Source of the DNA: Escherichia coli
GTDB taxonomy: Bacteria; Pseudomonadota; Gammaproteobacteria; Enterobacterales; Enterobacteriaceae
NCBI RefSeq assembly: GCF_013315695.1
Contig: NZ_CP054353.1
Direction: 5' to 3' (one strand)
Length of the DNA stretch: 64,000 nucleotides
Part shown: one piece after another, positions 6,996-49,331 of the stretch
How the letters are laid out: the number at the start of each line of letters is the position of its first letter
Position numbering within the stretch: the stretch's first letter is position 1
Program-made: the position numbers and the translations under genes
The notes under the pieces: model-generated
Databases searched by the model: none
What the model saw: the letters and a program-made list of their open reading frames with translations, nothing else
Told to the model about the DNA's origin: nothing

Positions 6996-8129
6996 ATGTC
7001 ATCACTGAATATTAAACAGGGAAGTGACGCTCATTTTCCCGAGTATCCTCTGGCGTCGCCCAGTAATAATGAAATTGATTTACTTAATCTAATTGAAGTT
7101 TTATGGCGGGCCAAAAAAACGGTCATGGCGGTCGTTTTTGCGTTTGCCTGCGCAGGTTTACTGATCTCTTTCATCCTACCGCAAAAATGGACCTGCGCGG
7201 CGGTTGTCACGCCTCCAGAACCTGTTCAGTGGCAGGCGCTTGAGAAAACATTCACTAAGCTTCGTGTGCTGGATCTGGATATCAAAATTGATCGTACAGA
7301 AGCATTTAACCTGTTTATCAAGAAGTTTCAGTCGGTTAGCTTGCTGGAAGAGTACCTGCGTTCATCACCTTATGTGATGGACCAATTAAAAGAGGCGAAA
7401 ATCGATGAACTGGATTTGCATCGCGCAATTGTCGCATTGAGCGAAAAAATGAAAGCGGTTGATGACAATGCCAGTAAGAAAAAAGATGAACCGTCACTGT
7501 ATACCTCCTGGACGCTAAGTTTTACCGCGCCAACCAGTGAAGAGGCGCAGACCGTTTTGAGCGGGTATATCGATTATATCTCTGCGTTGGTGGTGAAAGA
7601 GTCGATAGAAAACGTCCGTAATAAACTGGAGATCAAAACCCAGTTTGAAAAAGAAAAACTGGCTCAGGATCGCATTAAAACGAAAAATCAACTTGATGCA
7701 AACATTCAGCGCCTCAATTATTCACTCGACATTGCCAACGCGGCAGGAATTAAAAAGCCCGTTTACAGTAATGGTCAGGCCGTTAAAGATGACCCCGATT
7801 TCTCTATTTCTCTCGGCGCAGACGGTATTGAACGCAAACTGGAAATTGAAAAAGCGGTTACTGACGTTGCGGAACTGAACGGTGAATTACGTAATCGTCA
7901 GTATCTTGTTGAGCAGCTAACAAAAGCAAATATCAACGATGTGAATTTTACGCCGTTTAAATATCAGTTAAGCCCGTCATTGCCAGTGAAAAAAGACGGT
8001 CCGGGTAAGGCGATTATTGTGATCCTTTCTGCGATGATCGGCGGGATGGTGGCTTGTGGTGGCGTGCTGTTGCGCTATGCGATGGCATCCAGAAAACAGG
8101 ATGCCGTGATGGAAGAGCACTTAGTTTAA
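6996..8129 (+). CDS. fepE: Polysaccharide co-polymerase family protein FepE (O-antigen chain-length regulator-like)
   Basis: 377-aa ORF MSSLNIKQGSDAHF..., recalled FepE sequence. Confidence 0.9.
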   Translation: MSSLNIKQGSDAHFPEYPLASPSNNEIDLLNLIEVLWRAKKTVMAVVFAFACAGLLISFILPQKWTCAAVVTPPEPVQWQALEKTFTKLRVLDLDIKIDRTEAFNLFIKKFQSVSLLEEYLRSSPYVMDQLKEAKIDELDLHRAIVALSEKMKAVDDNASKKKDEPSLYTSWTLSFTAPTSEEAQTVLSGYIDYISALVVKESIENVRNKLEIKTQFEKEKLAQDRIKTKNQLDANIQRLNYSLDIANAAGIKKPVYSNGQAVKDDPDFSISLGADGIERKLEIEKAVTDVAELNGELRNRQYLVEQLTKANINDVNFTPFKYQLSPSLPVKKDGPGKAIIVILSAMIGGMVACGGVLLRYAMASRKQDAVMEEHLV

Positions 8130-11041: not shown

Positions 11042-12292
11042 ATGAATAAACAATCCTGGCTGCTTAACCTCAGCCTGTTGAAAACGCACCCGGCGTTTCG
11101 CGCAGTATTCCTCGCTCGTTTTATCTCAATTGTTTCTCTGGGTTTGCTCGGCGTCGCGGTGCCGGTGCAGATCCAGATGATGACGCATTCTACCTGGCAG
11201 GTGGGGCTTTCGGTGACGCTGACCGGCGGCGCGATGTTTGTTGGCCTGATGGTCGGCGGTATGCTGGCGGATCGCTATGAGCGTAAAAAAGTGATTTTGC
11301 TGGCGCGCGGCACCTGTGGCATTGGCTTCATTGGACTGTGCCTGAACGCGCTGCTGCCGGAGCCGTCATTGCTGGCAATCTATTTACTTGGTTTATGGGA
11401 TGGTTTTTTCGCATCACTTGGCGTTACGGCGCTACTGGCGGCGACACCTGCACTGGTAGGGCGTGAAAACCTAATGCAGGCCGGGGCGATCACCATGTTG
11501 ACTGTGCGTCTGGGATCGGTGATTTCGCCCATGATTGGCGGTTTACTGCTGGCGACCGGAGGCGTAGCTTGGAACTACGGGCTGGCGGCGGCGGGCACGT
11601 TTATTACCTTGCTACCGTTGTTAAGCCTTCCGGCGTTGCCACCACCGCCGCAGCCGCGTGAGCATCCGTTGAAATCATTACTGGCAGGATTTCGTTTTCT
11701 ACTCGCCAGCCCGCTGGTGGGAGGGATTGCGTTGCTGGGTGGTTTATTGACGATGGCGAGCGCGGTGCGGGTCCTGTATCCGGCGCTGGCTGACAACTGG
11801 CAGATGTCGGCGGCACAGATTGGTTTTCTCTATGCGGCGATTCCGCTCGGCGCGGCTATTGGCGCGTTAACCAGCGGGAAGCTGGCACATAGTGCGCGAC
11901 CAGGGTTATTGATGCTGCTCTCCACGCTGGGATCGTTCCTTGCCATTGGTCTGTTTGGCCTGATGCCGATGTGGATTTTAGGCGTGGTTTGCCTGGCGCT
12001 GTTCGGTTGGTTGAGCGCGGTTAGTTCGTTGCTGCAATATACAATGCTGCAAACGCAAACCCCGGAAGCGATGTTAGGGCGGATTAACGGTTTGTGGACG
12101 GCGCAAAACGTGACGGGCGATGCCATAGGCGCAGCGCTGCTGGGCGGTTTGGGCGCGATGATGACACCGGTTGCTTCCGCAAGCGCGAGCGGTTTTGGTT
12201 TGTTGATTATCGGCGTGTTGTTATTGCTGGTGCTGGTGGAGTTGCGACGTTTTCGCCAGACGCCGCCGCAGATGACAGCGTCCGACAGTTAA
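11042..12292 (+). CDS. entS: Enterobactin exporter EntS (MFS transporter)
   Basis: 416-aa [33 protein letters not shown]..., multi-pass membrane protein. Confidence 0.92.
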
Positions 12293-12295
12293 TGC

Positions 12296-13252
12296 TTAAA
12301 ACAGCGCCTTAAGTCGTTCCAGCACTTGCATGGCGCTGTAGTAATCCAGGCGGAACGTCTCGGTTCCCAGCGCATAAACCTGCTTGTTTTGTACTGCAGG
12401 CAGGTGCGCGAGCAGTGGATTGGCATAAATCGCATCGGCATCTTTCTGATCACCAGCGAACAGGAATAGTGAATCGCCATTTAACCCTGCAGCCAGATTT
12501 TCTCCACCAAGCTGAATGATGTCATGGCGTTTGCCTTGGCTTTGGCTGGCGTTTAACCCTGCGGGCAATTTCGCCAACGTAAAGCCGAGTTGTTCCAGCA
12601 TCTGCCCTTGTGCTGATTCCGGCGTCCAGAGATTGGCACTGTGTGCAGCGGCGGTATAGACAATGGCAGTGACCGGCTGCGGCGGTAATTTGATTTGCTC
12701 TTTCGCCGCCGCCAGTTGCTTATCAAACTGTGCAATCCGCTCTGCCGCTTGTTTCTCATGCCCGGTAATTTCGCCAAGCTGCGTTAACAGCGACTGCCAG
12801 CTTTTGTCGTCGTAATTGATGATTAATGTTGGGGCGATGGTAGAAAGCTGATCGTACAGCGCCAGCGCCGAATCCCCGCCGGTTGCGCTAATTAAAATCA
12901 GATCCGGCATTTGCGCGGCAACGGCTTCGGCGCTCGGTTCGCCGATATAGATCCGTTGCAGTTTGCGTTCTTTCGCCACCTTGCTCCACTGGCGTAAAAA
13001 GCCCTGGTCATCCGCGACGCGGTTATTTGGCGTGGTCGCGCCGCTGGCGATCACCGGAGCATCAATCGCCAGCAGTGAGCCGGTCAGGGTGACGCTGGTG
13101 GAAACTATACGCTGCGGCTGGCTTTCCAGGGTATGAGTGCCCCGGCTGTCAGTAATCTGACGCGGCCAGTCGGCGGCCTGAACTGCGACTATTCCTGAAA
13201 GCAAAAGTCCTGTTAATAGAAGGGCGTTGCGGTAGAGCGGGGCGAGTCTCAC
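12296..13252 (-). CDS. fepB: Ferric enterobactin periplasmic binding protein FepB
   Basis: 318-aa ORF with GTG start ([20 protein letters not shown]...), signal peptide. Confidence 0.9.
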
Positions 13253-18449: not shown

Positions 18450-20555
18450 ATGAACAAATCAGGGAAATACCTCGTCTGGACAGTGCTCTCTGTAATGGGA
18501 GCATTTGCTCTGGGATATATTGCTTTAAATCGTGGGGAACAGATCAACGCGCTGTGGATTGTGGTGGCGTCGGTCTGTATCTATCTGATCGCTTACCGTT
18601 TTTATGGGCTGTATATCGCCAAAAATGTGCTGGCGGTTGACCCGACGCGTATGACGCCCGCGGTGCGCCATAACGACGGGCTGGACTATGTGCCGACGGA
18701 CAAAAAAGTGCTGTTCGGTCACCATTTTGCGGCCATTGCCGGAGCAGGTCCGTTGGTTGGGCCGGTACTGGCGGCGCAAATGGGCTACCTGCCGGGGATG
18801 ATCTGGCTGCTTGCCGGGGTGGTTCTCGCCGGTGCGGTGCAGGATTTCATGGTGCTGTTTGTTTCTACGCGCCGTGACGGTCGCTCGCTGGGTGAGCTGG
18901 TCAAAGAAGAGATGGGGCCAACCGCCGGGGTGATAGCGCTGGTGGCCTGCTTTATGATCATGGTCATTATCCTTGCCGTGCTGGCGATGATCGTGGTGAA
19001 AGCCCTGACTCATAGCCCGTGGGGAACGTATACCGTTGCGTTCACCATTCCGCTGGCTCTGTTTATGGGGATCTACCTGCGCTATTTGCGTCCGGGCCGC
19101 ATTGGGGAAGTGTCGGTGATTGGCCTGGTATTCCTGATTTTCGCCATTATCTCTGGCGGCTGGGTGGCAGAAAGCCCGACCTGGGCACCGTACTTTGACT
19201 TTACCGGCGTGCAGCTGACCTGGATGCTGGTGGGTTACGGTTTTGTGGCGGCGGTGCTGCCGGTGTGGTTGCTGCTGGCCCCGCGCGACTACCTCTCAAC
19301 TTTCCTGAAAATCGGGACTATCGTCGGTCTGGCGGTAGGCATTCTGATTATGCGCCCGACGCTGACCATGCCCGCGCTAACTAAATTTGTCGATGGCACT
19401 GGCCCGGTATGGACCGGTAACCTGTTCCCGTTCCTGTTTATCACCATCGCCTGTGGCGCGGTGTCTGGCTTCCATGCGCTGATCTCTTCCGGCACCACGC
19501 CGAAGATGCTGGCGAACGAAGGGCAGGCGTGTTTTATCGGCTACGGCGGGATGTTAATGGAATCCTTCGTGGCGATTATGGCGCTGGTTTCCGCCTGTAT
19601 CATCGATCCAGGTGTGTACTTCGCTATGAACAGCCCGATGGCAGTGCTGGCTCCGGCAGGGACGGCGGATGTAGTCGCTTCTGCGGCGCAGGTGGTGAGT
19701 AGCTGGGGCTTTGCGATTACCCCGGATACGCTAAATCAGATTGCCAGCGAAGTGGGGGAACAGTCGATCATTTCCCGTGCGGGCGGTGCGCCGACCCTGG
19801 CGGTGGGGATGGCCTACATTCTGCACGGTGCTCTGGGCGGCATGATGGATGTGGCGTTCTGGTATCACTTCGCCATTCTGTTTGAAGCACTGTTTATTCT
19901 GACGGCGGTGGATGCAGGTACGCGTGCTGCGCGCTTTATGTTGCAGGATCTGCTGGGCGTGGTGTCTCCGGGCCTGAAACGGACCGATTCACTGCCTGCT
20001 AACCTGCTGGCAACGGCGCTGTGCGTGCTGGCTTGGGGTTACTTTCTGCATCAGGGCGTGGTCGATCCGCTGGGCGGTATTAACACTCTGTGGCCACTGT
20101 TTGGTATTGCCAACCAGATGCTGGCAGGGATGGCGCTGATGCTTTGTGCTGTGGTGCTGTTCAAAATGAAACGTCAACGTTACGCCTGGGTGGCGCTGGT
20201 ACCAACGGCCTGGCTGCTGATTTGTACCCTGACCGCAGGCTGGCAGAAAGCGTTTAGCCCGGATGCGAAAGTCGGCTTCTTGGCCATTGCTAATAAGTTC
20301 CAGGCAATGATCGACAGCGGCAATATTCCGTCGCAGTATACTGAGTCACAACTGGCGCAACTGGTGTTCAACAACCGTCTTGATGCCGGGTTAACCATCT
20401 TCTTTATGGTGGTCGTGGTGGTTCTGGCGCTGTTCTCGATTAAGACGGCACTGGCGGCATTGAAAGAGCCGAAGCCAACGGCGAAAGAAACGCCGTATGA
20501 GCCAATGCCGGAAAATGTCGAGGAGATCGTGGCGCAGGCAAAAGGCGCGCACTAA
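18450..20555 (+). CDS. cstA: Carbon starvation protein CstA (peptide/pyruvate transporter family)
   Basis: 701-aa polytopic membrane ORF MNKSGKYLVWTVLSVMGAFALGYIALN... Confidence 0.93.
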   Translation: MNKSGKYLVWTVLSVMGAFALGYIALNRGEQINALWIVVASVCIYLIAYRFYGLYIAKNVLAVDPTRMTPAVRHNDGLDYVPTDKKVLFGHHFAAIAGAGPLVGPVLAAQMGYLPGMIWLLAGVVLAGAVQDFMVLFVSTRRDGRSLGELVKEEMGPTAGVIALVACFMIMVIILAVLAMIVVKALTHSPWGTYTVAFTIPLALFMGIYLRYLRPGRIGEVSVIGLVFLIFAIISGGWVAESPTWAPYFDFTGVQLTWMLVGYGFVAAVLPVWLLLAPRDYLSTFLKIGTIVGLAVGILIMRPTLTMPALTKFVDGTGPVWTGNLFPFLFITIACGAVSGFHALISSGTTPKMLANEGQACFIGYGGMLMESFVAIMALVSACIIDPGVYFAMNSPMAVLAPAGTADVVASAAQVVSSWGFAITPDTLNQIASEVGEQSIISRAGGAPTLAVGMAYILHGALGGMMDVAFWYHFAILFEALFILTAVDAGTRAARFMLQDLLGVVSPGLKRTDSLPANLLATALCVLAWGYFLHQGVVDPLGGINTLWPLFGIANQMLAGMALMLCAVVLFKMKRQRYAWVALVPTAWLLICTLTAGWQKAFSPDAKVGFLAIANKFQAMIDSGNIPSQYTESQLAQLVFNNRLDAGLTIFFMVVVVVLALFSIKTALAALKEPKPTAKETPYEPMPENVEEIVAQAKGAH

Positions 20556-20667: not shown

Positions 20668-20865
20668 ATGTTTGATTCACTGGCAAAAGCCGGAAAATAT
20701 TTAGGTCAGGCGGCGAAACTGATGATTGGTATGCCTGATTACGACAACTATGTCGAACATATGCGGGTTAACCATCCCGATCAAACGCCGATGACCTACG
20801 AGGAGTTTTTCCGTGAGCGGCAGGACGCGCGCTACGGTGGAAAAGGCGGCGCGCGCTGCTGCTAA
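20668..20865 (+). CDS. ybdD: Small DUF466-family protein YbdD, the conserved partner of cstA
   Basis: 65-aa [61 protein letters not shown]... Confidence 0.85.
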
Positions 20866-20874
20866 ATTTGTACG

Positions 20875-21963
20875 TCAGGCTTTAAACGATTCCACTTTTT
20901 CGAACGCTGCACGCAACGTATCCGGTGTCAGCGTGACCGGCAGGTAATGAATGGATTCCACCGGACGTAAGGTGTGGGCAATCACTTTGTCGATCTCCGC
21001 CTGATTATTGATATCCACTTCCAGCTCCGCCAGCGTAGTCGGCAGATGAAAACGCTGATACGCCCCGGTTAATTGCGCCAGCACATCATCCTGACCCAGC
21101 AAGGCGCTTTGCACCAGAATTCCGTAGGCGACTTTGGTGCCGTGGAGAAACTTCTCGGTTTGCGGCAGCACGGTCAGACCGTTATGCACGGCATGGGCCG
21201 CCGCCACACGCGTAAAACGATCGCCCAGACCACCGACCATTCCACCTCCGGCGATAATCGCATCCACCACATCGCAAAATGATTGCGTTAACTGGTGATT
21301 TTGCTGATCGCTCAGCGCCTGTTCGCTACTGTTTAACAAGACGTCGCGAATAGCCTGCGCATTATTGATCCCTAGCCGCACGGTTAGCGGCAACGTTTCT
21401 GGTTGCGGGGCCAGCACCACCGCTTCATACCATTTCGCCAGCGTGTCACCGATCCCCGCCAGCAGATATTGTTGCGGCGCGTTGAGGATAATCTCCGGTT
21501 CCACCAGCACCATAAAATTGGCGTCGTCGAAAATCTCATAATGCAGCGCTTGTCCGGCATCGTTGTACCAGACAGAGAGCGGTGTCCAGGCTGCGCAGGT
21601 AGCGGCGATCGTCGGAACGGCAACAAACGGCAGACCGAGACGGCGGGCGAGGGCTTTCGCGGTGTCGAGCAGTGCGCCGCCGCCGACGCCAATCACCACG
21701 CTGCGATCGTCACCGGACTCAGCCGCCAGTTGTTGTACATCGCTTTCGCTGCAATGACCACGAAACAAAATATGCTTTACCCCTGGCAGTTCAAACGCAG
21801 GCGGCAGTTTGGTTTGTGCCGCAGCAATGGCGCGTTCGCCGTAGATCCACACTGCGCGAGAAAGTTGTTCATCAGTGAAAAAATCGTGCAGGTGATTGAA
21901 ACTTCCGGGATGTGAAAAGTAGTTAGCCGGGCCGACGACCACGCGGATAGGATTGTGAGGCAT
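20875..21963 (-). CDS. ybdH: Iron-containing group III alcohol dehydrogenase family protein YbdH (hydroxycarboxylate dehydrogenase)
   Basis: 362-aa ORF MPHNPIRVVVGPANYFSHPGSFNHLHDFF... Confidence 0.88.
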   Translation of the reverse strand: MPHNPIRVVVGPANYFSHPGSFNHLHDFFTDEQLSRAVWIYGERAIAAAQTKLPPAFELPGVKHILFRGHCSESDVQQLAAESGDDRSVVIGVGGGALLDTAKALARRLGLPFVAVPTIAATCAAWTPLSVWYNDAGQALHYEIFDDANFMVLVEPEIILNAPQQYLLAGIGDTLAKWYEAVVLAPQPETLPLTVRLGINNAQAIRDVLLNSSEQALSDQQNHQLTQSFCDVVDAIIAGGGMVGGLGDRFTRVAAAHAVHNGLTVLPQTEKFLHGTKVAYGILVQSALLGQDDVLAQLTGAYQRFHLPTTLAELEVDINNQAEIDKVIAHTLRPVESIHYLPVTLTPDTLRAAFEKVESFKA

Positions 21964-22071
21964 GTTGTGTTGTCCTTATTGTTTTATTTAGACATCTAAA
22001 CGTCTTGATTGCCAAATACTAGCATCGTGTTATAGTGCCTTCAACACGCAACTTCGTCAGGTACAATAAAA

Positions 22072-23232
22072 ATGACAAATAACCCTCTGATTCCACAAAG
22101 CAAACTTCCACAACTTGGCACCACTATTTTCACCCAGATGAGCGCGCTGGCGCAGCAACACCAGGCGATTAACCTTTCGCAAGGCTTTCCTGATTTTGAT
22201 GGTCCGCGCTATTTACAAGAGCGGCTGGCGTACCACGTTGCCCAGGGGGCAAACCAATACGCGCCTATGACTGGCGTGCAGGCCTTGCGCGAGGCGATTG
22301 CTCAGAAAACGGAACGTCTGTATGGCTATCAACCGGATGCCGATAGTGATATCACCGTAACGGCAGGGGCGACGGAAGCGTTATATGCAGCGATTACCGC
22401 ATTGGTGCGCAATGGTGATGAAGTGATCTGCTTTGATCCCAGCTATGACAGTTACGCCCCCGCCATCGCGCTTTCTGGGGGAATAGTGAAGCGTATGGCA
22501 CTGCAACCACCGCATTTTCGCGTGGACTGGCAGGAATTTGCCGCATTGTTAAGCGAGCGCACCCGACTGGTGATCCTCAACACCCCGCATAACCCCAGTG
22601 CAACTGTCTGGCAGCAGGCTGATTTCTCCGCTCTGTGGCAGGCGATTGCCGGGCACGAGATTTTTGTCATTAGCGATGAAGTCTACGAGCACATCAATTT
22701 TTCACAACAGGGCCATGCCAGCGTGCTGGCGCATCCGCAATTGTGTGAGCGAGCGGTGGCGGTGTCATCGTTTGGCAAGACCTATCATATGACCGGCTGG
22801 AAAGTGGGGTATTGCGTTGCACCTGCGCCCATCAGCGCCGAGATCCGCAAAGTGCATCAGTATCTGACCTTTTCGGTGAATACCCCGGCACAGTTGGCGC
22901 TTGCCGATATGCTACGTGCAGAACCTGAGCATTATCTTGCGTTACCGGACTTTTATCGCCAGAAGCGCGATATTCTGGTGAATGCCTTAAATGAAAGTCG
23001 GCTGGAGATTTTACCGTGCGAAGGTACATACTTTTTGCTGGTGGATTACAGCGCCGTATCTACGATGGATGATGTTGAGTTTTGCCAGTGGCTGACGCGG
23101 GAGCACGGCGTAGCGGCGATTCCGCTGTCGGTGTTTTGCGCCGATCCCTTCCCACATAAACTGATTCGTCTCTGTTTTGCCAAAAAGGAATCGACGTTGC
23201 TGGCAGCAGCAGAACGCCTGCGCCAGCTGTAG
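22072..23232 (+). CDS. ybdL: PLP-dependent aminotransferase YbdL (methionine aminotransferase)
   Basis: 386-aa ORF MTNNPLIPQSKLPQLGTTIFTQMSALAQQHQAINLSQGFPDFDGP... (class I aminotransferase). Confidence 0.9.
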   Translation: MTNNPLIPQSKLPQLGTTIFTQMSALAQQHQAINLSQGFPDFDGPRYLQERLAYHVAQGANQYAPMTGVQALREAIAQKTERLYGYQPDADSDITVTAGATEALYAAITALVRNGDEVICFDPSYDSYAPAIALSGGIVKRMALQPPHFRVDWQEFAALLSERTRLVILNTPHNPSATVWQQADFSALWQAIAGHEIFVISDEVYEHINFSQQGHASVLAHPQLCERAVAVSSFGKTYHMTGWKVGYCVAPAPISAEIRKVHQYLTFSVNTPAQLALADMLRAEPEHYLALPDFYRQKRDILVNALNESRLEILPCEGTYFLLVDYSAVSTMDDVEFCQWLTREHGVAAIPLSVFCADPFPHKLIRLCFAKKESTLLAAAERLRQL

Positions 23233-23862
23233 TTATTTAACCGTCCAGGCGCGGGAAAATTGACGGTCGGCAAACAACTCTTGCAGGCCGTTAATTTGCT
23301 TCAGGCGCAACACTTCGTCGCTGTCCATTCCCAGCTCTTTGCCAATTTTATTATCGTCCCATCCCAACTGGCTGAGTTCACGGACGATTTCTGACATGGC
23401 AGTGATTTGGTGACGTCCACGAGCGCGATTATGACGAATAGTCGCGGCGATGCGTTGATTACGCGTACCTTCCAGACAGGTCACCGGCAAATAACCTTTT
23501 AAGCGTAATTTTAACGATGATGAGCCTTTACCAATTTCATGGCGGTGAAAACCATCCACGATTTCCAGGGCATTTTTATCCGTATGCGTGACCACAATGG
23601 GTTGGGTAAAACCATCTATTTCAATGGATTTTTTCAGCAGTTTTTTTTCGGGTGGTGCCACGTTGTTTGGGTTGTAATCATTAGGCATAAGTTGGCTGTT
23701 TTTAACCCACAGAACGCAATCCACTGGCTCTTCACGAAAGGGGCTAACCTGATGGATCGCCATGCGGATTTCATTAATCGCTTTGATGCGATCATCTTCC
23801 GGCAAGCTGGCGAGAAATTGGGTTAAATCCTGCGTTAATCGTTGTTGCATAGTATCCCCCAT
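23233..23862 (-). CDS. ybdM: ParB/sulfiredoxin-like domain protein YbdM (IbrB-like)
   Basis: 209-aa ORF; ParB-like core …IVDGFHRHE…; its start overlaps the 3' end of ybdN by 28 nt. Confidence 0.85.
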   Translation of the reverse strand: MGDTMQQRLTQDLTQFLASLPEDDRIKAINEIRMAIHQVSPFREEPVDCVLWVKNSQLMPNDYNPNNVAPPEKKLLKKSIEIDGFTQPIVVTHTDKNALEIVDGFHRHEIGKGSSSLKLRLKGYLPVTCLEGTRNQRIAATIRHNRARGRHQITAMSEIVRELSQLGWDDNKIGKELGMDSDEVLRLKQINGLQELFADRQFSRAWTVK

Positions 23863-25055
23863 TCCTGACGTTTTCCTTTTATCCGTTCGTTATAACGCTG
23901 ATAGTTCTTCGCTTTCGTAGGACTAAATGATAATGCCCGGCACCAGTAATCGTTATTGAGTAAAACTTTGCATATTCGCCGCCAGGAGGGGATATCTTTC
24001 GCGCCAATGTCCCCTTGCTGGGTTTGTGGAACTTCGATGCCTTTTTTCTGATACCAGTGCAAATAAATGGCGATTTTATTGCGGTAATGCTCAGCTGTTT
24101 TTTCCGGCATGCTATTGAGCAGCAATAATGCATATTCTTGCCAGTCTAAATGTTCTGGCTTGAGGATTTTCCGATGACCATAAAAATGATTATCATGTCC
24201 GGCGTAAATGCCGCCACTTTTTACCCCGCTGACTCGTGCGCACATAGCAGCCCAGCGATCCGGTTCGATAACGTGATAGAGCCATAATCCTTGCCGTTGC
24301 TCCGGGCCAAAAGGTTCGCAAATTCGCATATGACGCAGAGGAACGCCTGCCTGATACATTATATTATACAGTGGGTTACAGAGCTGTTGATGGTTAGCAT
24401 ACCAGGTCCAGATATCAGCCACTTTCCAGTCGTAGATGGGGTAAATGTACCAACTATGACCGCCTGGTGCGGCGGTGGTCCAGGGCTTATCATCGGCAAA
24501 ACGTTGTTTATTTAAACTGGCGATGGCGACAAAACGGTTGTAGGACTCATCTGCACGGATGCCGATCATCATCGCCGCCGGACGTTTTTGTGAAAACCAT
24601 TCAGCAAACTCACGCACAAATTGTTCGAAGGTCATGCCAGGCTGGTAAAAGGAGAAAAAGTCAGGATCGGTTATCGCATCTTGCGGAGGCTGACGCACCC
24701 ATTCGACATCAGGTTCCCAGCACTGCCATTCGGGTTGGTATTGAGAAAGGGAATTTTGCGTCGTAAGCGGGAGCGCAACCCAGTAAAACTCTTCGATGAC
24801 ATCGGCGTAAAACTCACGTAATGACTGAACATAGTTAATAGTGCATGAGAACTGCGCTTCCCAGTCGATAAACAAAACGCAGATTTTTTTGCCCATTTGT
24901 CGGACAATTTCGGCGGTCAGATGCAGCATTAATCCGGAATCTTTACCACCCGAAAAAGAAACGCAGACACGGGGTAGGGTATTAAGTGTCCAGGTAATAC
25001 GTTCTTTTGCAGCTTCCAGAATATTCAGTGGAAGCGGGATTTTATAAATAGACAT
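23835..25055 (-). CDS. ybdN: PAPS-reductase-like (PP-loop ATP pyrophosphatase family) protein YbdN (IbrA-like)
   Basis: 406-aa ORF with the PP-loop motif SFSGGKDS near the N-terminus. Confidence 0.85.
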   Translation of the reverse strand: MSIYKIPLPLNILEAAKERITWTLNTLPRVCVSFSGGKDSGLMLHLTAEIVRQMGKKICVLFIDWEAQFSCTINYVQSLREFYADVIEEFYWVALPLTTQNSLSQYQPEWQCWEPDVEWVRQPPQDAITDPDFFSFYQPGMTFEQFVREFAEWFSQKRPAAMMIGIRADESYNRFVAIASLNKQRFADDKPWTTAAPGGHSWYIYPIYDWKVADIWTWYANHQQLCNPLYNIMYQAGVPLRHMRICEPFGPEQRQGLWLYHVIEPDRWAAMCARVSGVKSGGIYAGHDNHFYGHRKILKPEHLDWQEYALLLLNSMPEKTAEHYRNKIAIYLHWYQKKGIEVPQTQQGDIGAKDIPSWRRICKVLLNNDYWCRALSFSPTKAKNYQRYNERIKGKRQEWGILCNND

Positions 25056-25201: not shown

Positions 25202-26104
25202 TCAGAAGCTATCATTTAAACGATCTATGAATCGGGAGAAGACAAGGTTGTTCAACGAAGCCTTGTTATAGGAAATATAAAGTTTAACCGCAGGAAGAGG
25301 TTGTTCCAGTTTTATTTCTTTTAACTTCAAAAAGTCACGATGTAAATTGTACAGTTCGGTGGGCACAATGCCTAATAAGTCAGTAACAGAAATACTATTA
25401 ATTATAGTCATCAAAGAAGAACTGCGAAATGAAACTTTACGGTTCATAAAGCGTTCATCTATGTCCATTTGAATTTCGTCAATCCCTGCTGATTTAGATA
25501 TCAACAGGGTGAATTCTTCGGCGATAATTTGTTCATAGTTACTGGTATCAGTAATACGAGGATGTTTGTTGCTACATATAAGGGAATTGCGAATAGTGTG
25601 TAACGGCATGCAGATGACAGAGCGACTAATTACTGGTTGTAGTGTAATTGCCAGGTCAGTTTTGCGTTGAACCAACAGTTCTTCGGCATTTTCAGCTGAA
25701 AGCAGTATGTCATGGCATTCTATATCGATTGAAGTATCTTGTCTAAGACAGCGGATTAGCATGTTGTTATTAGTACAAGAAATAAGCTGAGGACCGTAGA
25801 TAATAAAATTTTTCTTTAGTTCAGACTTATTAACGATATTGATCGTTTGTTCAAGGCCTCTGAGATTTTTCTCAAGATGGTGATGCAGGTTTAACCCTGT
25901 TGTAGTCGGCGCGATACCTTTCCCTGAGCGAATGAATAACGGGTCATTAAATTGCGCACGTAAACGTTGTAACGACTGACTAACAGCAGAGGGCGTTATA
26001 TATAATGATTCTGCCGCTTTACTAATGCTGAGATGTTGATAAATACATTCAAATATAACCAGTAAATTGAGGTCAAATTTTTTTAGATCATAAAGATTAG
26101 CCAT
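25202..26104 (-). CDS. ybdO: LysR-family transcriptional regulator YbdO
   Basis: Start MANLYDLKKFDLNLLVIFECIYQHLSISKAAESLYITPSAVSQSLQRLR (HTH), about 300 aa; AT-rich coding sequence. Confidence 0.85.
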   Translation of the reverse strand: MANLYDLKKFDLNLLVIFECIYQHLSISKAAESLYITPSAVSQSLQRLRAQFNDPLFIRSGKGIAPTTTGLNLHHHLEKNLRGLEQTINIVNKSELKKNFIIYGPQLISCTNNNMLIRCLRQDTSIDIECHDILLSAENAEELLVQRKTDLAITLQPVISRSVICMPLHTIRNSLICSNKHPRITDTSNYEQIIAEEFTLLISKSAGIDEIQMDIDERFMNRKVSFRSSSLMTIINSISVTDLLGIVPTELYNLHRDFLKLKEIKLEQPLPAVKLYISYNKASLNNLVFSRFIDRLNDSF

Positions 26105-29804: not shown

Positions 29805-30233
29805 TTAACGCACAACCAGCACCGGCAAATTGGCGTGGCGGATCACGCTCGAGGCGTTAGAACCCAACAGATGAGTTGAAATCGATGGGTTACGCGAACC
29901 AATCACTACTACATCTGCATCAAGTTCTTTCGCTAACTCGTTAACTTCATCCCGCACACTACCAAAACGGACATGTTGCTTAATGCGGGAAGGATCGATG
30001 GTGAAGTGGCTGACCATCGTTTGCAGACGTTCTTCTGCTTCATGTTGCAGATGCTCTTCAAAACGACGTACATCAGCGGCAAAACGGTGCAGGCTCAGGC
30101 TGGCTGACCCCGGTAGTACGTGAAGTAGATGAATAACTCCGTCATCCTGGGCGAGGAATTCAGCGTGGCGAACCGCTTTGTCGCTCAATTCCATTTCGAA
30201 AACATCCACTGGCATGATGATTGTTTTGTACAT
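29805..30233 (-). CDS. uspG: Universal stress protein UspG
   Basis: Start [29 protein letters not shown]…, 142 aa, RBS ggagag upstream. The track ORF is extended 11 codons upstream. Confidence 0.9.
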
Positions 30234-30356
30234 AAGCATTCTCTCCTTGTTTTTGCATGTATACATAACAGCACATTATTGGTTATGAATCTATGATTTG
30301 CGAGGCTGATTTGATCTGAATTTGCTATTGAGCTGGAAAATAAATAAAACCAGGCG

Positions 30357-30446
30357 CTACCAGCGTTGTTCAAGGTATAGCACTGCAGCAACAATAATTG
30401 CGGCTATGAATATATAAAATGCAGTGATACCGAGAGCTTCGCTCAT
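30357..30446 (-). CDS. Candidate 29-aa hydrophobic small ORF (MSEALGITAFYIFIAAIIVAAVLYLEQRW); hypothetical
   Basis: ATG…TAG ORF found by manual reading in the uspG–rnk spacer. It has one predicted transmembrane helix and a weak RBS, and is below the ORF-track size cutoff. Confidence 0.2.
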   Translation of the reverse strand: MSEALGITAFYIFIAAIIVAAVLYLEQRW

Positions 30447-30588
30447 ATGAGGTTCCGCAGATGAATAACCAGTTCAGATTAGAATGCTGCGCTTAAGAGC
30501 AAAATGATAAATCTGGTTGATATTTGAGCGGAAAGAGGATGCGAGTGCATCCTCTGGGCAAAGCGAGTTATCGCTTGTGCAGATGGGA

Positions 30589-30999
30589 TTAAAGCAGGTA
30601 ATCGCCAGCAGCTTCTGGCTGGTATTCGAGTTCCAGCACTTCAAGGTGGGTTGCAACGCCGCCTGGAAGTTCCCAGTGAATGGAATCGCCAACGCGCAGC
30701 CCCAGCAGTGCGGCACCTACCGGAGCCATAACGGAAAGCTGAGTATTGCTGTCGGTCATTTTTGCCGGATACACCAGCGTGCGCACACGCACTTCGCCAT
30801 CGCTAAGATTGCGGAATTTAACCCGGCTGTTCATTGTCACCACGTCGTGTGGCATCTCTTCTGGCGAACACATTTGGGCGCGATCCAACTCTGCGTTTAA
30901 CGCGTCGGCGATTGGCAAACCAGCATAGGCGGGTTGCTCCAGCAGAATATCGATGCGTTCGGCATCCAGGTCGTTAATGATGATAGTTGGTCTGGACAT
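30589..30999 (-). CDS. rnk: Regulator of nucleoside diphosphate kinase Rnk (GreA/GreB C-terminal-domain-like)
   Basis: 136-aa [46 protein letters not shown]... Confidence 0.9.
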
Positions 31000-48633: not shown

Positions 48634-48909
48634 GTGGCTTCTGTTTCTATCAGCTGTCCCTCCTGTTCAGCTACTGACGGGGTGGTGCGTAACGGCAAAA
48701 GCACCGCCGGACATCAGCGCTATCTCTGCTCTCACTGCCGTAAAACATGGCAACTGCAGTTCACTTACACCGCTTCTCAACCCGGTACGCACCAGAAAAT
48801 CATTGATATGGCCATGAATGGCGTTGGATGCCGGGCAACAGCCCGCATTATGGGCGTTGGCCTCAACACGATTTTACGTCACTTAAAAAACTCAGGCCGC
48901 AGTCGGTAA
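48634..48909 (+). CDS. insA: IS1 InsA (transposition repressor / N-terminal part of the InsAB' transposase)
   Basis: [94 protein letters not shown] start. Confidence 0.95.
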
Positions 48910-49331
48910 CCTCGCGCATACAGCCGGGCAGTGACGTCATCGTCTGCGCGGAAATGGACGAACAGTGGGGCTATGTCGGGGCTAAATCGCGCCAGCGCTG
49001 GCTGTTTTACGCGTATGACAGGCTCCGGAAGACGGTTGTTGCGCACGTATTCGGTGAACGCACTATGGCGACGCTGGGGCGTCTTATGAGCCTGCTGTCA
49101 CCCTTTGACGTGGTGATATGGATGACGGATGGCTGGCCGCTGTATGAATCCCGCCTGAAGGGAAAGCTGCACGTAATCAGCAAGCGATATACGCAGCGAA
49201 TTGAGCGGCATAACCTGAATCTGAGGCAGCACCTGGCACGGCTGGGACGGAAGTCGCTGTCGTTCTCAAAATCGGTGGAGCTGCATGACAAAGTCATCGG
49301 GCATTATCTGAACATAAAACACTATCAATAA
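48828..49331 (+). CDS. insB: IS1 InsB frame; the functional transposase InsAB' is made by a -1 ribosomal frameshift from insA
   Basis: 167-aa [67 protein letters not shown]…. Confidence 0.9.

Follow-up and report, generated by a model that had tools for sequence, protein, structure and literature searches.

In Escherichia coli MG1655, convergent neighbours with 3′-overlapping mRNAs have been catalogued as convergent excludons. The 165 convergent excludons listed for this strain with ExcludonFinder (NAR 2025, Table 1; PMC12288877) include the pair ybdL-ybdM, which was detected in at least 50% of 58 MG1655 RNA-seq datasets; overlapping ybdL/ybdM transcription is already catalogued in print. Like other pairs on that list, such as ybdD-hcxA, entS-fepB and the studied case of mscL-arfA, ybdL and ybdM would share a 3′ mRNA overlap with termination signals lying inside the neighbouring unit. 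Several known RNA elements are relevant to how such messages end. Intrinsic terminators consist of a G+C-rich stem-loop soon after the stop codon followed by a U-rich stretch, and bidirectional terminators also have an A-rich stretch before the stem. The protective stem-loops at the 3′ ends of Rho-terminated transcripts (Dar and Sorek 2018, NAR, PMC6061677) are stable, lie past the stop codon and have no canonical U-tract. For the genes on the other strand, the closest relatives are the IbrA/IbrB-type pairs of phages and genomic islands, which have the same two-gene architecture as YbdN (PAPS_reduct and DUF3440) and YbdM (ParB_N-like); Escherichia phage PhiR5_2 carries an annotated IbrA/IbrB pair with 56% identity to YbdN.

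Here we analyse the ybdL-ybdM junction in a 64,000-nt stretch of E. coli DNA (RefSeq assembly GCF_013315695.1, contig NZ_CP054353.1; hereafter the window). What is new at this locus is a conserved predicted RNA hairpin that would close the ybdL message while being encoded inside the ybdM coding sequence. The explanation that we consider likely is an ancient and otherwise ordinary convergent junction, in which ybdL has its 3′ hairpin within ybdM and the two mRNAs overlap inside each other's genes.

The ybdL-ybdM junction

The stop codon of ybdL (TAG, 23230-23232, + strand) adjoins that of ybdM (TAA, 23233-23235, - strand) with a spacer of 0 nt. The letters read ...cag ctg TAG TTA ttt aac..., where TTA is the complement of the ybdM stop (Table 1). 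The genes lie tail to tail on opposite strands, the arrangement of a convergent excludon, and they are not overlapping genes, since the stops are adjacent and share no nucleotide (fepE and fepC, by comparison, share 4 nt). Stop codons, genes, strands and zero spacing agree with the original prediction in the sequence, the open reading frame list and RefSeq. RefSeq places the ends of ybdL and ybdM on neighbouring bases in the identical strain and in K-12, BL21, O157 and PEC41, and an older K-12 gene table is concordant (ybdL 632809-633969, ybdM 633970-634599); in K-12 the junction reads TAG/CTA. This is an ordinary, very tight convergent junction that already stands in the standard annotation.

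Table 1. Features at and around the ybdL-ybdM junction, in window coordinates.
Feature	Position	Strand	Basis or remark
Sigma-70 promoter match, TTGCCA-16-TATAGT, extended TG	22009..22036	+	Consensus scan; upstream of ybdL
ybdL CDS, methionine aminotransferase, 386 aa	22072..23232	+	ORF, RefSeq
Long imperfect hairpin, 37-94 nt past the ybdM stop	23139..23196	-	Antisense to ybdL 3′ coding region
Small hairpin GCUGGCGCAGG...CUGCCAGC	23199..23227	-	Just past the ybdM stop
Junction hexamer TAG/TTA	23230..23235	both	0-nt spacer
ybdM CDS, ParB_N/IbrB-like, 209 aa, second gene of the ybdNM operon	23233..23862	-	ORF, RefSeq
RNA hairpin, 25-65 nt past the ybdL stop	23257..23297	+	Antisense to ybdM codons ~189-202
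Imperfect U-rich tail AUUUGCUUC	23294..23302	+	After the core stem
GC change-point	23489		0.536 (ybdL-like) vs 0.458 (ybdMN-like); step ~8 points
ybdN CDS, PAPS-reductase-like and DUF3440 (IbrA-like), 406 aa	23835..25055	-	ORF, RefSeq, domain search
citR (ybdO), LysR-type repressor of ybdNM	25202..26104	-	RefSeq; GC 0.369

YbdL is a methionine aminotransferase: it scores 707 bits against the NCBIfam methionine aminotransferase model NF006569 (cutoff 420) and matches PDB 1U08 (YbdL) over residues 1-386 with an E value of 4.7e-261. YbdM is a borderline case for Pfam ParB_N (PF02195), whose gathering score of 26.3 it narrowly misses with 24.6 bits, and RefSeq names it an IbrB-like domain-containing protein. 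Its start is overlapped by ybdN over 28 nt, and the operon formed by the two genes is repressed by CitR (PMC9068703). For YbdN and YbdM, PADLOC returned nothing stronger than weak matches to DndC, BrxP and methyltransferases, and no defence system was assigned. The promoter match upstream of ybdL is a match to the consensus only, in a region where the number of such matches is at chance level.

Tight convergent junctions are common in this part of the chromosome. Taking the first 50 kb of the window as the background, the nine convergent pairs there are spaced by -4, 0, 3, 9, 40, 53, 100, 117 and 120 nt, and four of the nine are at or below 9 nt (fepE/fepC at -4, ybdL/ybdM at 0, entS/fepB at 3 and ybdD/hcxA at 9). 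The zero gap is no excess over chance in its local context.

The arrangement is also widely conserved. At least 5400 of 5426 complete E. coli genomes match the junction region contiguously at a coverage of 80% or more, and 5419 match at all. Among 49 Enterobacteriaceae species that have ybdM beside ybdL, the gap is exactly 0 in 47, covering at least 12 genera, and the other two, both Citrobacter, have a 13-nt insertion at the junction. The stop codons themselves vary across the 49 species (TAG, TAA or TGA for ybdL; TAA or TAG for ybdM), and the C-terminal ...AWTVK residues of YbdM are conserved. The arrangement is older than the split of Escherichia, Salmonella, Citrobacter, Enterobacter, Klebsiella, Raoultella, Kluyvera and others. 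The zero gap may have been kept passively, by purifying selection on both protein C-termini, which would leave a single bond open to an insertion that changes the spacing. Selection on the zero gap itself was considered and dropped as unnecessary, because only that one bond is open to neutral insertion and because two Citrobacter species tolerate the 13-nt insertion.

A + strand hairpin downstream of ybdL

The + strand RNA past the ybdL stop codon is predicted to form a stem-loop whose core pairs 23261-23272 with 23282-23293 (UGACGGUC-G-GCA / UGC-A-GGCCGUUA), with a dG of about -15 kcal/mol. As in an intrinsic terminator, the stem-loop is stable, G+C-rich and placed shortly past the stop. The tail AUUUGCUUC has 5 U in 8-9 positions and is interrupted; it was accepted by a relaxed scan and rejected by a strict consensus terminator scan. 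The hairpin is present in both the MFE and the centroid fold, and its mean pair probability is 0.6-0.75 across the 49 species. Scored against dinucleotide shuffles, it has a z of -2.4 to -3.0 in the window and of -3.3 to -5.6 in Enterobacter, Salmonella and Raoultella. The original prediction that no terminator lies between the genes therefore needs to be divided: there is no spacer to hold one, but a conserved terminator-like hairpin of ybdL lies inside ybdM.

One possible explanation is that conserved YbdM residues (ADR...LNGIQK) produce the hairpin incidentally, with the zero gap a by-product and ybdL transcription stopped diffusely by Rho. The stem arms do encode conserved residues, and the sequence of the U-rich tail is also dictated by the codons for the conserved YbdM residues K-Q-I. 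However, synonymous recodings that preserve both the protein and the GC content fold much worse in 49 of 49 species. In GC-matched synonymous resampling of the + strand the mean z is -2.59, with all 49 species below 0 and 84% below -1.64, counts that are not independent because the 49 species are phylogenetically related. The ybdM-sense strand has a mean z of -0.77 in the same resampling, and the signal comes only from the final 78 nt of ybdM (-2.91, versus -0.28 +/- 0.95 in other windows), so that it is limited to one window of the gene and to the + strand, which speaks against a by-product of the coding sequence.

The pattern of substitutions is informative as well. Core pairs are retained in 40-49 of the 49 species. 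The 3′ arm is fixed and its 5′ partner differs between genera, and one core pair alternates between C-G in 20 species and U-A in 19. Pairing cells hold about 100 G.U against about 30 A.C, and the hairpin is specific to its strand because it relies on G.U pairs. A further argument against a side effect of coding comes from species in which the coding constraint is gone. In Raoultella terrigena, Enterobacter sp. 10-1 and K. indica, ybdMN has been lost and the terminal YbdM codons have decayed, and the hairpin still holds its register, with its stems lengthened and changes in one arm compensated in the other (CGGUC/GACCG to CGAUC/GAUCG). The K. indica hairpin folds with a z of -6.8, and the ybdM-less Enterobacter sp. 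10-1 has a more U-rich tail, UUUUCUCC. The hairpin thus survives, and improves, once ybdM no longer constrains it.

Several searches came back empty, and some of them can be cited in favour of a side effect of coding. At the junction the strict consensus scan detected neither a terminator nor a promoter, and its matches in the region are at chance (for terminators, 5 found and 5.4 expected). RNAalifold on the 49-species alignment left the stem out of its consensus and gave a weak, different 5-pair stem at -1.67 kcal/mol, a miss that is explained by an inner hairpin register that changes from genus to genus and that we take as evidence neither way. The Term-seq supplements of two studies (eLife 2021 and TERMITe 2025) hold no 3′-end entry for ybdL or ybdM. 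A search of Rfam at a permissive E-value over 22800-23700 gave no match. Weighing both sides, we regard a mere side effect of the YbdM residues as unlikely.

The hairpin is probably either the terminator of ybdL or a protective hairpin at the 3′ end of its mRNA. A stronger claim, which we put forward tentatively and think rather less probable than its failure, is that the ybdL 3′ hairpin is dual-coded in the C-terminal codons of ybdM, having been under selection for RNA structure since before the enteric genera split. Such selection would have shaped synonymous and possibly amino-acid choices at residues 189-202, and would have outlived ybdM where that gene was lost.

Overlap of the ybdL and ybdNM transcripts

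With no spacer there can be no terminator between the genes, and each mRNA therefore has to end inside the other gene. The antisense read-through into ybdM that had been suggested as a possibility is supported by the published RNA-seq overlap (PMC12288877). In a published strand-resolved K-12 table, whose counts are low and whose strand column is garbled in some rows, antisense reads over ybdM amount, per kb, to some 45-67% of the sense density of ybdL, and they are about 4x the local antisense background. Taken over the whole 630-nt ybdM, this density is higher than a 70-nt extension of the ybdL message would produce, so termination at the hairpin would be only partial. The reads suggest substantial read-through past the hairpin, and reads beyond the 70-nt extension also suit a diffuse stop by Rho.

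The mechanism that we favour takes these observations together. The core methionine aminotransferase gene ybdL ends on a stop adjacent to that of ybdM, which closes the ybdNM operon that CitR represses. About 25 nt past its stop the ybdL RNA would fold into the + strand stem-loop, followed by the imperfect U-rich tail, and this hairpin would act as an intrinsic, probably partial, terminator or as a protective 3′-end hairpin. The ybdNM transcripts would end further inside ybdL, probably through Rho, and then be trimmed back to the - strand hairpin 23196-23139. The ybdL and ybdNM mRNAs would overlap by at least ~100-160 nt, because both end inside the opposing gene, which fits the published excludon class.

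The - strand structure past the ybdM stop is secondary evidence. The long hairpin there is G.U-rich, and specific to the - strand for that reason, and no U-tract follows it. GC-matched synonymous resampling gives it a mean z of -1.83 in the 49 species with ybdM and of -0.91 in 33 species without it, and the ybdL-sense strand has a z of about 0. In 78-nt windows past the ybdM stop the signal is weak (z -0.7 to -0.9), becoming clearer only if the window frames the hairpin. The small hairpin just past the ybdM stop, with a U-run CCUUUUUGG (23180-23188) about 12 nt downstream, is strong in most Escherichia only; it is weak in E. albertii and not conserved outside the genus.

The overlap could also be regulatory, with a putative mutual exclusion of ybdL and ybdNM through collision of RNA polymerases or cleavage of the duplex by RNase III. 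The pair is on the published excludon list, the zero gap is conserved, and deletion of citR raises ybdN by a log2 of 5.5 and ybdM of the same operon by only 2.5 (PMC9068703). One Salmonella transcriptome reportedly shows ybdM following ybdL, ybdH and ybdD, in data whose strandedness is not given. However, the excludon classification is nearly automatic at this junction, because with a gap of 0 nt any 3′ UTR counts as overlap. ybdNM is also nearly silent under CitR, with base means of 20-36 (PMC9068703) and 3-9 RPM in the K-12 table. In the same table ybdL and ybdM yield little p19-captured dsRNA (0.9-9.6 RPM), and neither sense nor antisense levels of the two genes rise in rnc mutants. Mutual exclusion is accordingly a reading to which we give little credence.

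Base composition and the age of the ybdMN-citR cluster

The junction had also been read as a compositional shift into the ybdMNO island, and it might be the left edge of an AT-rich genomic island of recent origin. GC content does fall near it, from 0.539 in ybdL to 0.467 in ybdM and 0.464 in ybdN, with citR at 0.369. The best maximum-likelihood change-point is placed ~256 nt inside ybdM, with a support interval of 23144-23512, and the log-likelihood ratio is 9.08 at 23489 versus 7.55 at 23233. The border claim is therefore only partly borne out: the step is about 8 points and the junction falls within the support interval, but it is not the best position. The largest GC step of the region lies at ~24980-25040, the border of ybdN and citR. 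The description of ybdMN as AT-rich does not survive, as the GC of ybdM and ybdN is about that of the core neighbours dsbG and ahpC. The step is modest, from a GC-rich ybdL to ybdMN of average to low GC, and the true AT-rich element is citR, which alone among the genes of the cluster is strongly AT-rich.

Other observations might favour a recent island. Kosakonia, Pluralibacter, Cedecea, Buttiauxella and the Erwiniaceae lack ybdMN and have dsbG or other genes after ybdL. Relatives of YbdN turn up in 224 phage records, and one of these carries the annotation IbrA/IbrB. Against this, virtually all E. coli carry the cluster, and the identical zero-gap junction extends to at least 12 genera with YbdM identity down to ~60%. 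GC3 of the ybdMN-citR cluster tracks the host genome, and the annotation between cstA and ahpF contains no mobility genes, with no flanking integrase, tRNA gene or transposase. There is no repeat at the junction either; a search for short inverted repeats gave one 7-nt pair, elsewhere in the segment. A recent island is an improbable reading on these grounds, and the near-universal presence in E. coli, the spread over genera, the host-like GC3 and the lack of mobility genes suggest that ybdMN-citR is at most an ancient acquisition.

Proteins of the ParB family bind palindromes, often near parB. With a ParB N-terminal-like domain in YbdM and an inverted repeat in the 3′ end of its own gene, the repeat could be imagined as a parS-like DNA site for YbdM, but we reject this as very improbable on the asymmetry of the G.U pairs (as DNA, the arms lack Watson-Crick symmetry, 2 of 7 core positions being G.U and hence DNA mismatches, and the G.U bias described above is systematic) and on the retention, and even lengthening, of the repeat in species without ybdM.

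Significance and comparison with known systems

The junction itself matters little, being in the standard annotation, with its overlap catalogued and similarly tight convergent junctions common in the region. The case of ybdL is of modest value as an example in which the 3′ RNA hairpin of one gene would lie inside an opposing coding sequence, with support from tests at synonymous sites and from a natural experiment in gene loss. Its lesson is that an absent intergenic terminator does not imply an absent terminator. On the practical side, expression values for ybdM, and even more so for hcxA, that are not strand-specific are contaminated by read-through from the convergent neighbour. If the cell also made use of the overlap, a methionine-salvage enzyme would be tied to the silencing of an IbrAB-like module derived from phages.

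Compared with the other convergent excludons of MG1655, ybdL-ybdM has a spacer of exactly 0 nt, so that overlap is unavoidable and is not a property of a long 3′ UTR, and its p19-captured dsRNA is low. Compared with intrinsic terminators, the ybdL hairpin is contained entirely in a coding sequence on the opposite strand and has an interrupted U-tract, and the strand-resolved counts suggest substantial read-through. It shares with bidirectional terminators the A-rich stretch before the stem in Escherichia and Raoultella; in contrast to them it is G.U-biased and would therefore work on one strand only, and on the other strand it is placed 7-20 codons before the ybdM stop. Among the protective stem-loops of Rho-terminated transcripts, the - strand hairpin 23196-23139 would fit and the + strand hairpin could. 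Finally, whereas IbrA/IbrB pairs belong to phages and genomic islands, ybdNM is a fixed chromosomal operon that is under the control of CitR and is found in many genera.

Zero spacing between ybdL and ybdM is ancient and ordinary

The convergent genes ybdL and ybdM meet without a single intergenic nucleotide: the window reads ...CAG CTG TAG TTA TTT AAC..., with the complement of the ybdM stop occupying the three bases directly after the ybdL TAG. The sequence, the RefSeq annotations of K-12, BL21, O157 and a pig isolate, and an older K-12 gene table (ybdL 632809-633969, ybdM 633970-634599) all bear out the original prediction of zero spacing, which is already part of standard annotation. Over the junction this E. 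coli window matches isolate AF3 (NZ_OZ547117) at 100% identity and K-12 at 96.2%, and a contiguous match over this region occurs in at least 5400 of 5426 complete E. coli genomes. The zero gap is nothing unusual locally, as the nine convergent pairs in the first 50 kb of the window have gaps of -4, 0, 3, 9, 40, 53, 100, 117 and 120 nt. The ent-fep region is rich in tight convergent junctions. At the other end of ybdM, the annotated overlap with ybdN is 28 nt (23835-23862); a second in-frame ATG at ybdM codon 5 (23850) would cut it to 16 nt, and in some genera the YbdM alignment begins only at residue 5. Elsewhere (43589-44150, 48634-49331 and 30233-30589), this strain has a pagP annotated with a frameshift, an IS1 separating ybeF from lipB, and yldA as the sole gene annotated between uspG and rnk, so that ybdR, the partner of yldA in the K-12 excludon list, seems to be missing.

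Genes, convergent junctions and predicted RNA structures around ybdL/ybdM (window coordinates; G+C of the whole window, 0.518)
Feature	Position	Strand	G+C	Remark
fepE(wzz)/fepC junction	8126-8129			coding overlap of 4 nt (gap -4)
entS/fepB junction	12292-12296			gap 3 nt
cstA	18450-20555	+		
ybdD	20668-20865	+		
ybdD/hcxA junction	20865-20875			gap 9 nt between stops
hcxA/ybdH	20875-21963	-		
ybdL	22072-23232	+	0.539	stop TAG 23230-23232
ybdM	23233-23862	-	0.467	stop TAA
ybdN	23835-25055	-	0.464	
citR/ybdO	25202-26104	-	0.369	then dsbG and ahpC
dsbG			0.471	
ahpC			0.496	
ybdL 3' hairpin	23257-23297	+		core 23261-23272 paired with 23282-23293; followed by AUUUGCUUC
Stem around the stops	23217-23255	+		CCUGCGCC / GGCGCGGG
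Hairpin past ybdM stop	23196-23139	-		long, G.U-rich, no U-tract
Small hairpin and distant U-run	23227-23180	-		strong in most Escherichia, not other genera

A YbdL search in which each species was represented by one genome gave 80 loci, and ybdM lies downstream in 49 of the 80 species, from genera that include Escherichia, Salmonella, Citrobacter, Enterobacter, Lelliottia, Klebsiella, Raoultella, Kluyvera, Pseudocitrobacter, Superficieibacter and Huaxiibacter. The gap is exactly 0 nt in 47 of the 49, even though YbdM identity falls to about 60% and the stops themselves vary (TAG, TAA or TGA for ybdL; TAA or TAG for ybdM). The other two, Citrobacter sp. Cu233 and C. youngae CCUG 30791 (ybdL loci L016 and L041, 8159-8180), carry a 13-nt insertion (tgacgygatttcg) between the stops, and insertions are thus tolerated here. 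With both stop codons, this insertion forms a 7-bp hairpin, GUAGUGA...UCGCUAC. Both C-termini are conserved (YbdL ...AAERLxxL, YbdM ...AWTVK). Conservation of the zero gap is probably passive, as the spacing could change without harm to either protein only through an insertion at one particular bond. The junction is an ordinary, ancient and tightly packed one.

In the remaining 31 species ybdMN is missing beside ybdL, and the next gene is dsbG, citR or unrelated. In Kosakonia, about 33 nt holding a G+C-rich hairpin separate ybdL from dsbG; in Pluralibacter the gap to dsbG is about 5 nt. At two ybdL loci (L035 and L036, 8159-8225) the gene converging on ybdL is citR, about 15-16 nt away by tblastn coordinates, and a 7-bp hairpin (CGCCAGC...GCUGGCG), which no U-tract follows, lies right past the ybdL stop, within the 3′ part of the citR coding sequence.

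A conserved ybdL 3′ hairpin is encoded within ybdM

With a spacer of 0 nt, each mRNA must end within the opposing gene. A strict consensus scan detected no terminator at the junction, but a relaxed scan with folding predicts a plus-strand RNA stem-loop (dG about -15 kcal/mol) antisense to ybdM codons 189-202. When synonymous codons were resampled with the YbdM protein sequence fixed and GC matched within 1 nt, the real plus-strand RNA was more stable than the resampled ones in 49 of 49 species (mean z -2.59; 84% below -1.64), against a z of only -0.77 for the ybdM-sense strand. As a positional control, 78-nt windows were tiled over ybdM in 12 species, and only the 3′-terminal window stands out (mean z -2.91 versus -0.28 +/- 0.95 elsewhere). 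The core pairs are retained in 40-49 of the 49 species; these species are phylogenetically related, and the counts are not independent. One pair alternates between C-G (20 species) and U-A (19 species), and G.U combinations far exceed A.C (about 100 versus about 30 cells), a bias that marks the structure as one read on the plus strand. The 3′ arm and tail are constant, while the 5′ partner varies by genus.

Natural loss of ybdMN provides a further comparison. ybdMN has been lost, and citR kept, in R. terrigena, Enterobacter sp. 10-1 and K. indica, where the bases for the last YbdM residues and stop have diverged past recognition, whereas the hairpin segment aligns without gaps at an unchanged distance from the ybdL stop. 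The stems there are longer (13-17 bp) and carry compensatory double changes (CGGUC/GACCG to CGAUC/GAUCG); for K. indica the fold reaches a z of -6.8. What separates ybdL from citR in these species (loci L073, L029 and L056, 8162-8245) is a ybdM 3′ remnant of about 70-170 nt that is essentially the hairpin. RNAalifold did not recover the stem from the 49-species alignment, no Rfam family matched the region, and the imperfect U-tract also follows from the codons for the YbdM residues K-Q-I. Taken together, the resampling, position, pairing, arms and natural ybdMN loss indicate, at the level of sequence, that selection acts on the predicted hairpin as an RNA structure of the ybdL strand. The junction therefore appears not to be devoid of a termination signal, and this hairpin is its only new element. 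In Escherichia, a second plus-strand stem encloses the stop-stop hexamer, so that the junction sits in its loop; owing to variation in the ybdL C-terminus, other genera do not keep this stem.

On the minus strand, the long hairpin past the ybdM stop gives a synonymous-site z of -1.83 with ybdM, -0.91 without it and about 0 on the ybdL-sense strand, a weaker signal than that of the plus-strand hairpin. Transcripts of ybdNM may end by Rho and then be trimmed back to this structure.

Base composition around the junction

The boundary had also been proposed to mark a compositional shift into an AT-rich island. A modest step is real (0.536 to 0.458), but a likelihood change-point analysis places it best at 23489, 256 nt inside ybdM, though the junction does lie within the support interval (23144-23512). 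It is the ybdN/citR border, at about 24980-25040, that shows the region's strongest step, from 0.47 to 0.36. GC is higher in ybdL than in ybdM in every one of the 49 species (mean difference 6 points), and citR is lowest throughout (mean 14 points under ybdL); its deficit against ybdL is 10-20 points in each of the 44 species with the gene, even where the GC3 of ybdM and ybdN rose with the host. The description of ybdMN as AT-rich was overstated: both genes resemble dsbG and ahpC, their GC3 tracks the host genome, and the AT-rich element is citR. With a modest step, an ancient junction and no mobility genes annotated in the window beside the ybdMN-citR cluster, the sharp edge of a recent island finds no support. 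Phage records with YbdN relatives number 224, among them an Escherichia phage in which IbrA|IbrB is annotated, so a horizontal origin is plausible; if so, it must be ancient. Phages of Flavobacterium, Mycobacterium and Streptococcus are also among the sources, and YbdN shows weak DndC/BrxP-type similarity.

Overlapping transcription and comparison with known convergent pairs

Read-through between ybdL and ybdM is real and already published. The 165 convergent excludons that ExcludonFinder (NAR 2025, PMC12288877) reports from at least 50% of 58 RNA-seq sets of MG1655 include ybdL-ybdM, ybdD-hcxA and entS-fepB; for ybdL-ybdM, with its gap of 0 nt, membership is nearly automatic once both genes are detected. 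In wild-type K-12, sense/antisense RPM are 11.2/1.9 for ybdL, 9.4/4.0 for ybdM and 3.1/1.8 for ybdN (Huang et al. 2020, Table S1c). From this table, whose counts are low and whose strand column is garbled for some rows, antisense over ybdM per kb amounts to 45-67% of ybdL sense in three strains and is about four times that over ybdN or ybdL. This exceeds what a 70-nt extension would give, and the hairpin would therefore be only a partial terminator. In K-12, p19 captures little dsRNA over ybdL and ybdM and much over hcxA, ybdN and citR/ybdO (Huang et al. 2020). CitR represses ybdNM, and citR deletion raises ybdN by log2 5.5 and ybdM by only 2.5 (PMC9068703); in a Salmonella study of unstated strandedness, ybdM behaves like ybdL, ybdH and ybdD. 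None of these published expression data shows a regulatory effect of the overlap.

Read-through at ybdD/hcxA is much stronger: downstream of the highly expressed cstA-ybdD, hcxA antisense exceeds sense in K-12 (65.9 versus 18.1 RPM), and p19 dsRNA over ybdH reaches 270-602 RPM (Huang et al. 2020). A genomic SELEX study places a sigma-28 RNA polymerase peak inside the ybdL 3′ end, at K-12 633930 (window ~23190), about 40 nt short of the stop codon, where no sigma-28 consensus is apparent by eye.

The observation behind the original prediction is confirmed; of its interpretation, read-through and overlap stand, while the lack of a termination signal and the sharp, recent AT-rich island edge do not. 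The junction itself is of little consequence. The ybdL hairpin resembles a known pattern, a terminator inside the neighbouring convergent gene, and adds one more instance of it: 146 of the 165 ExcludonFinder pairs have predicted terminators inside the neighbouring transcription unit (PMC12288877), the same architecture as that proposed here for ybdL/ybdM.
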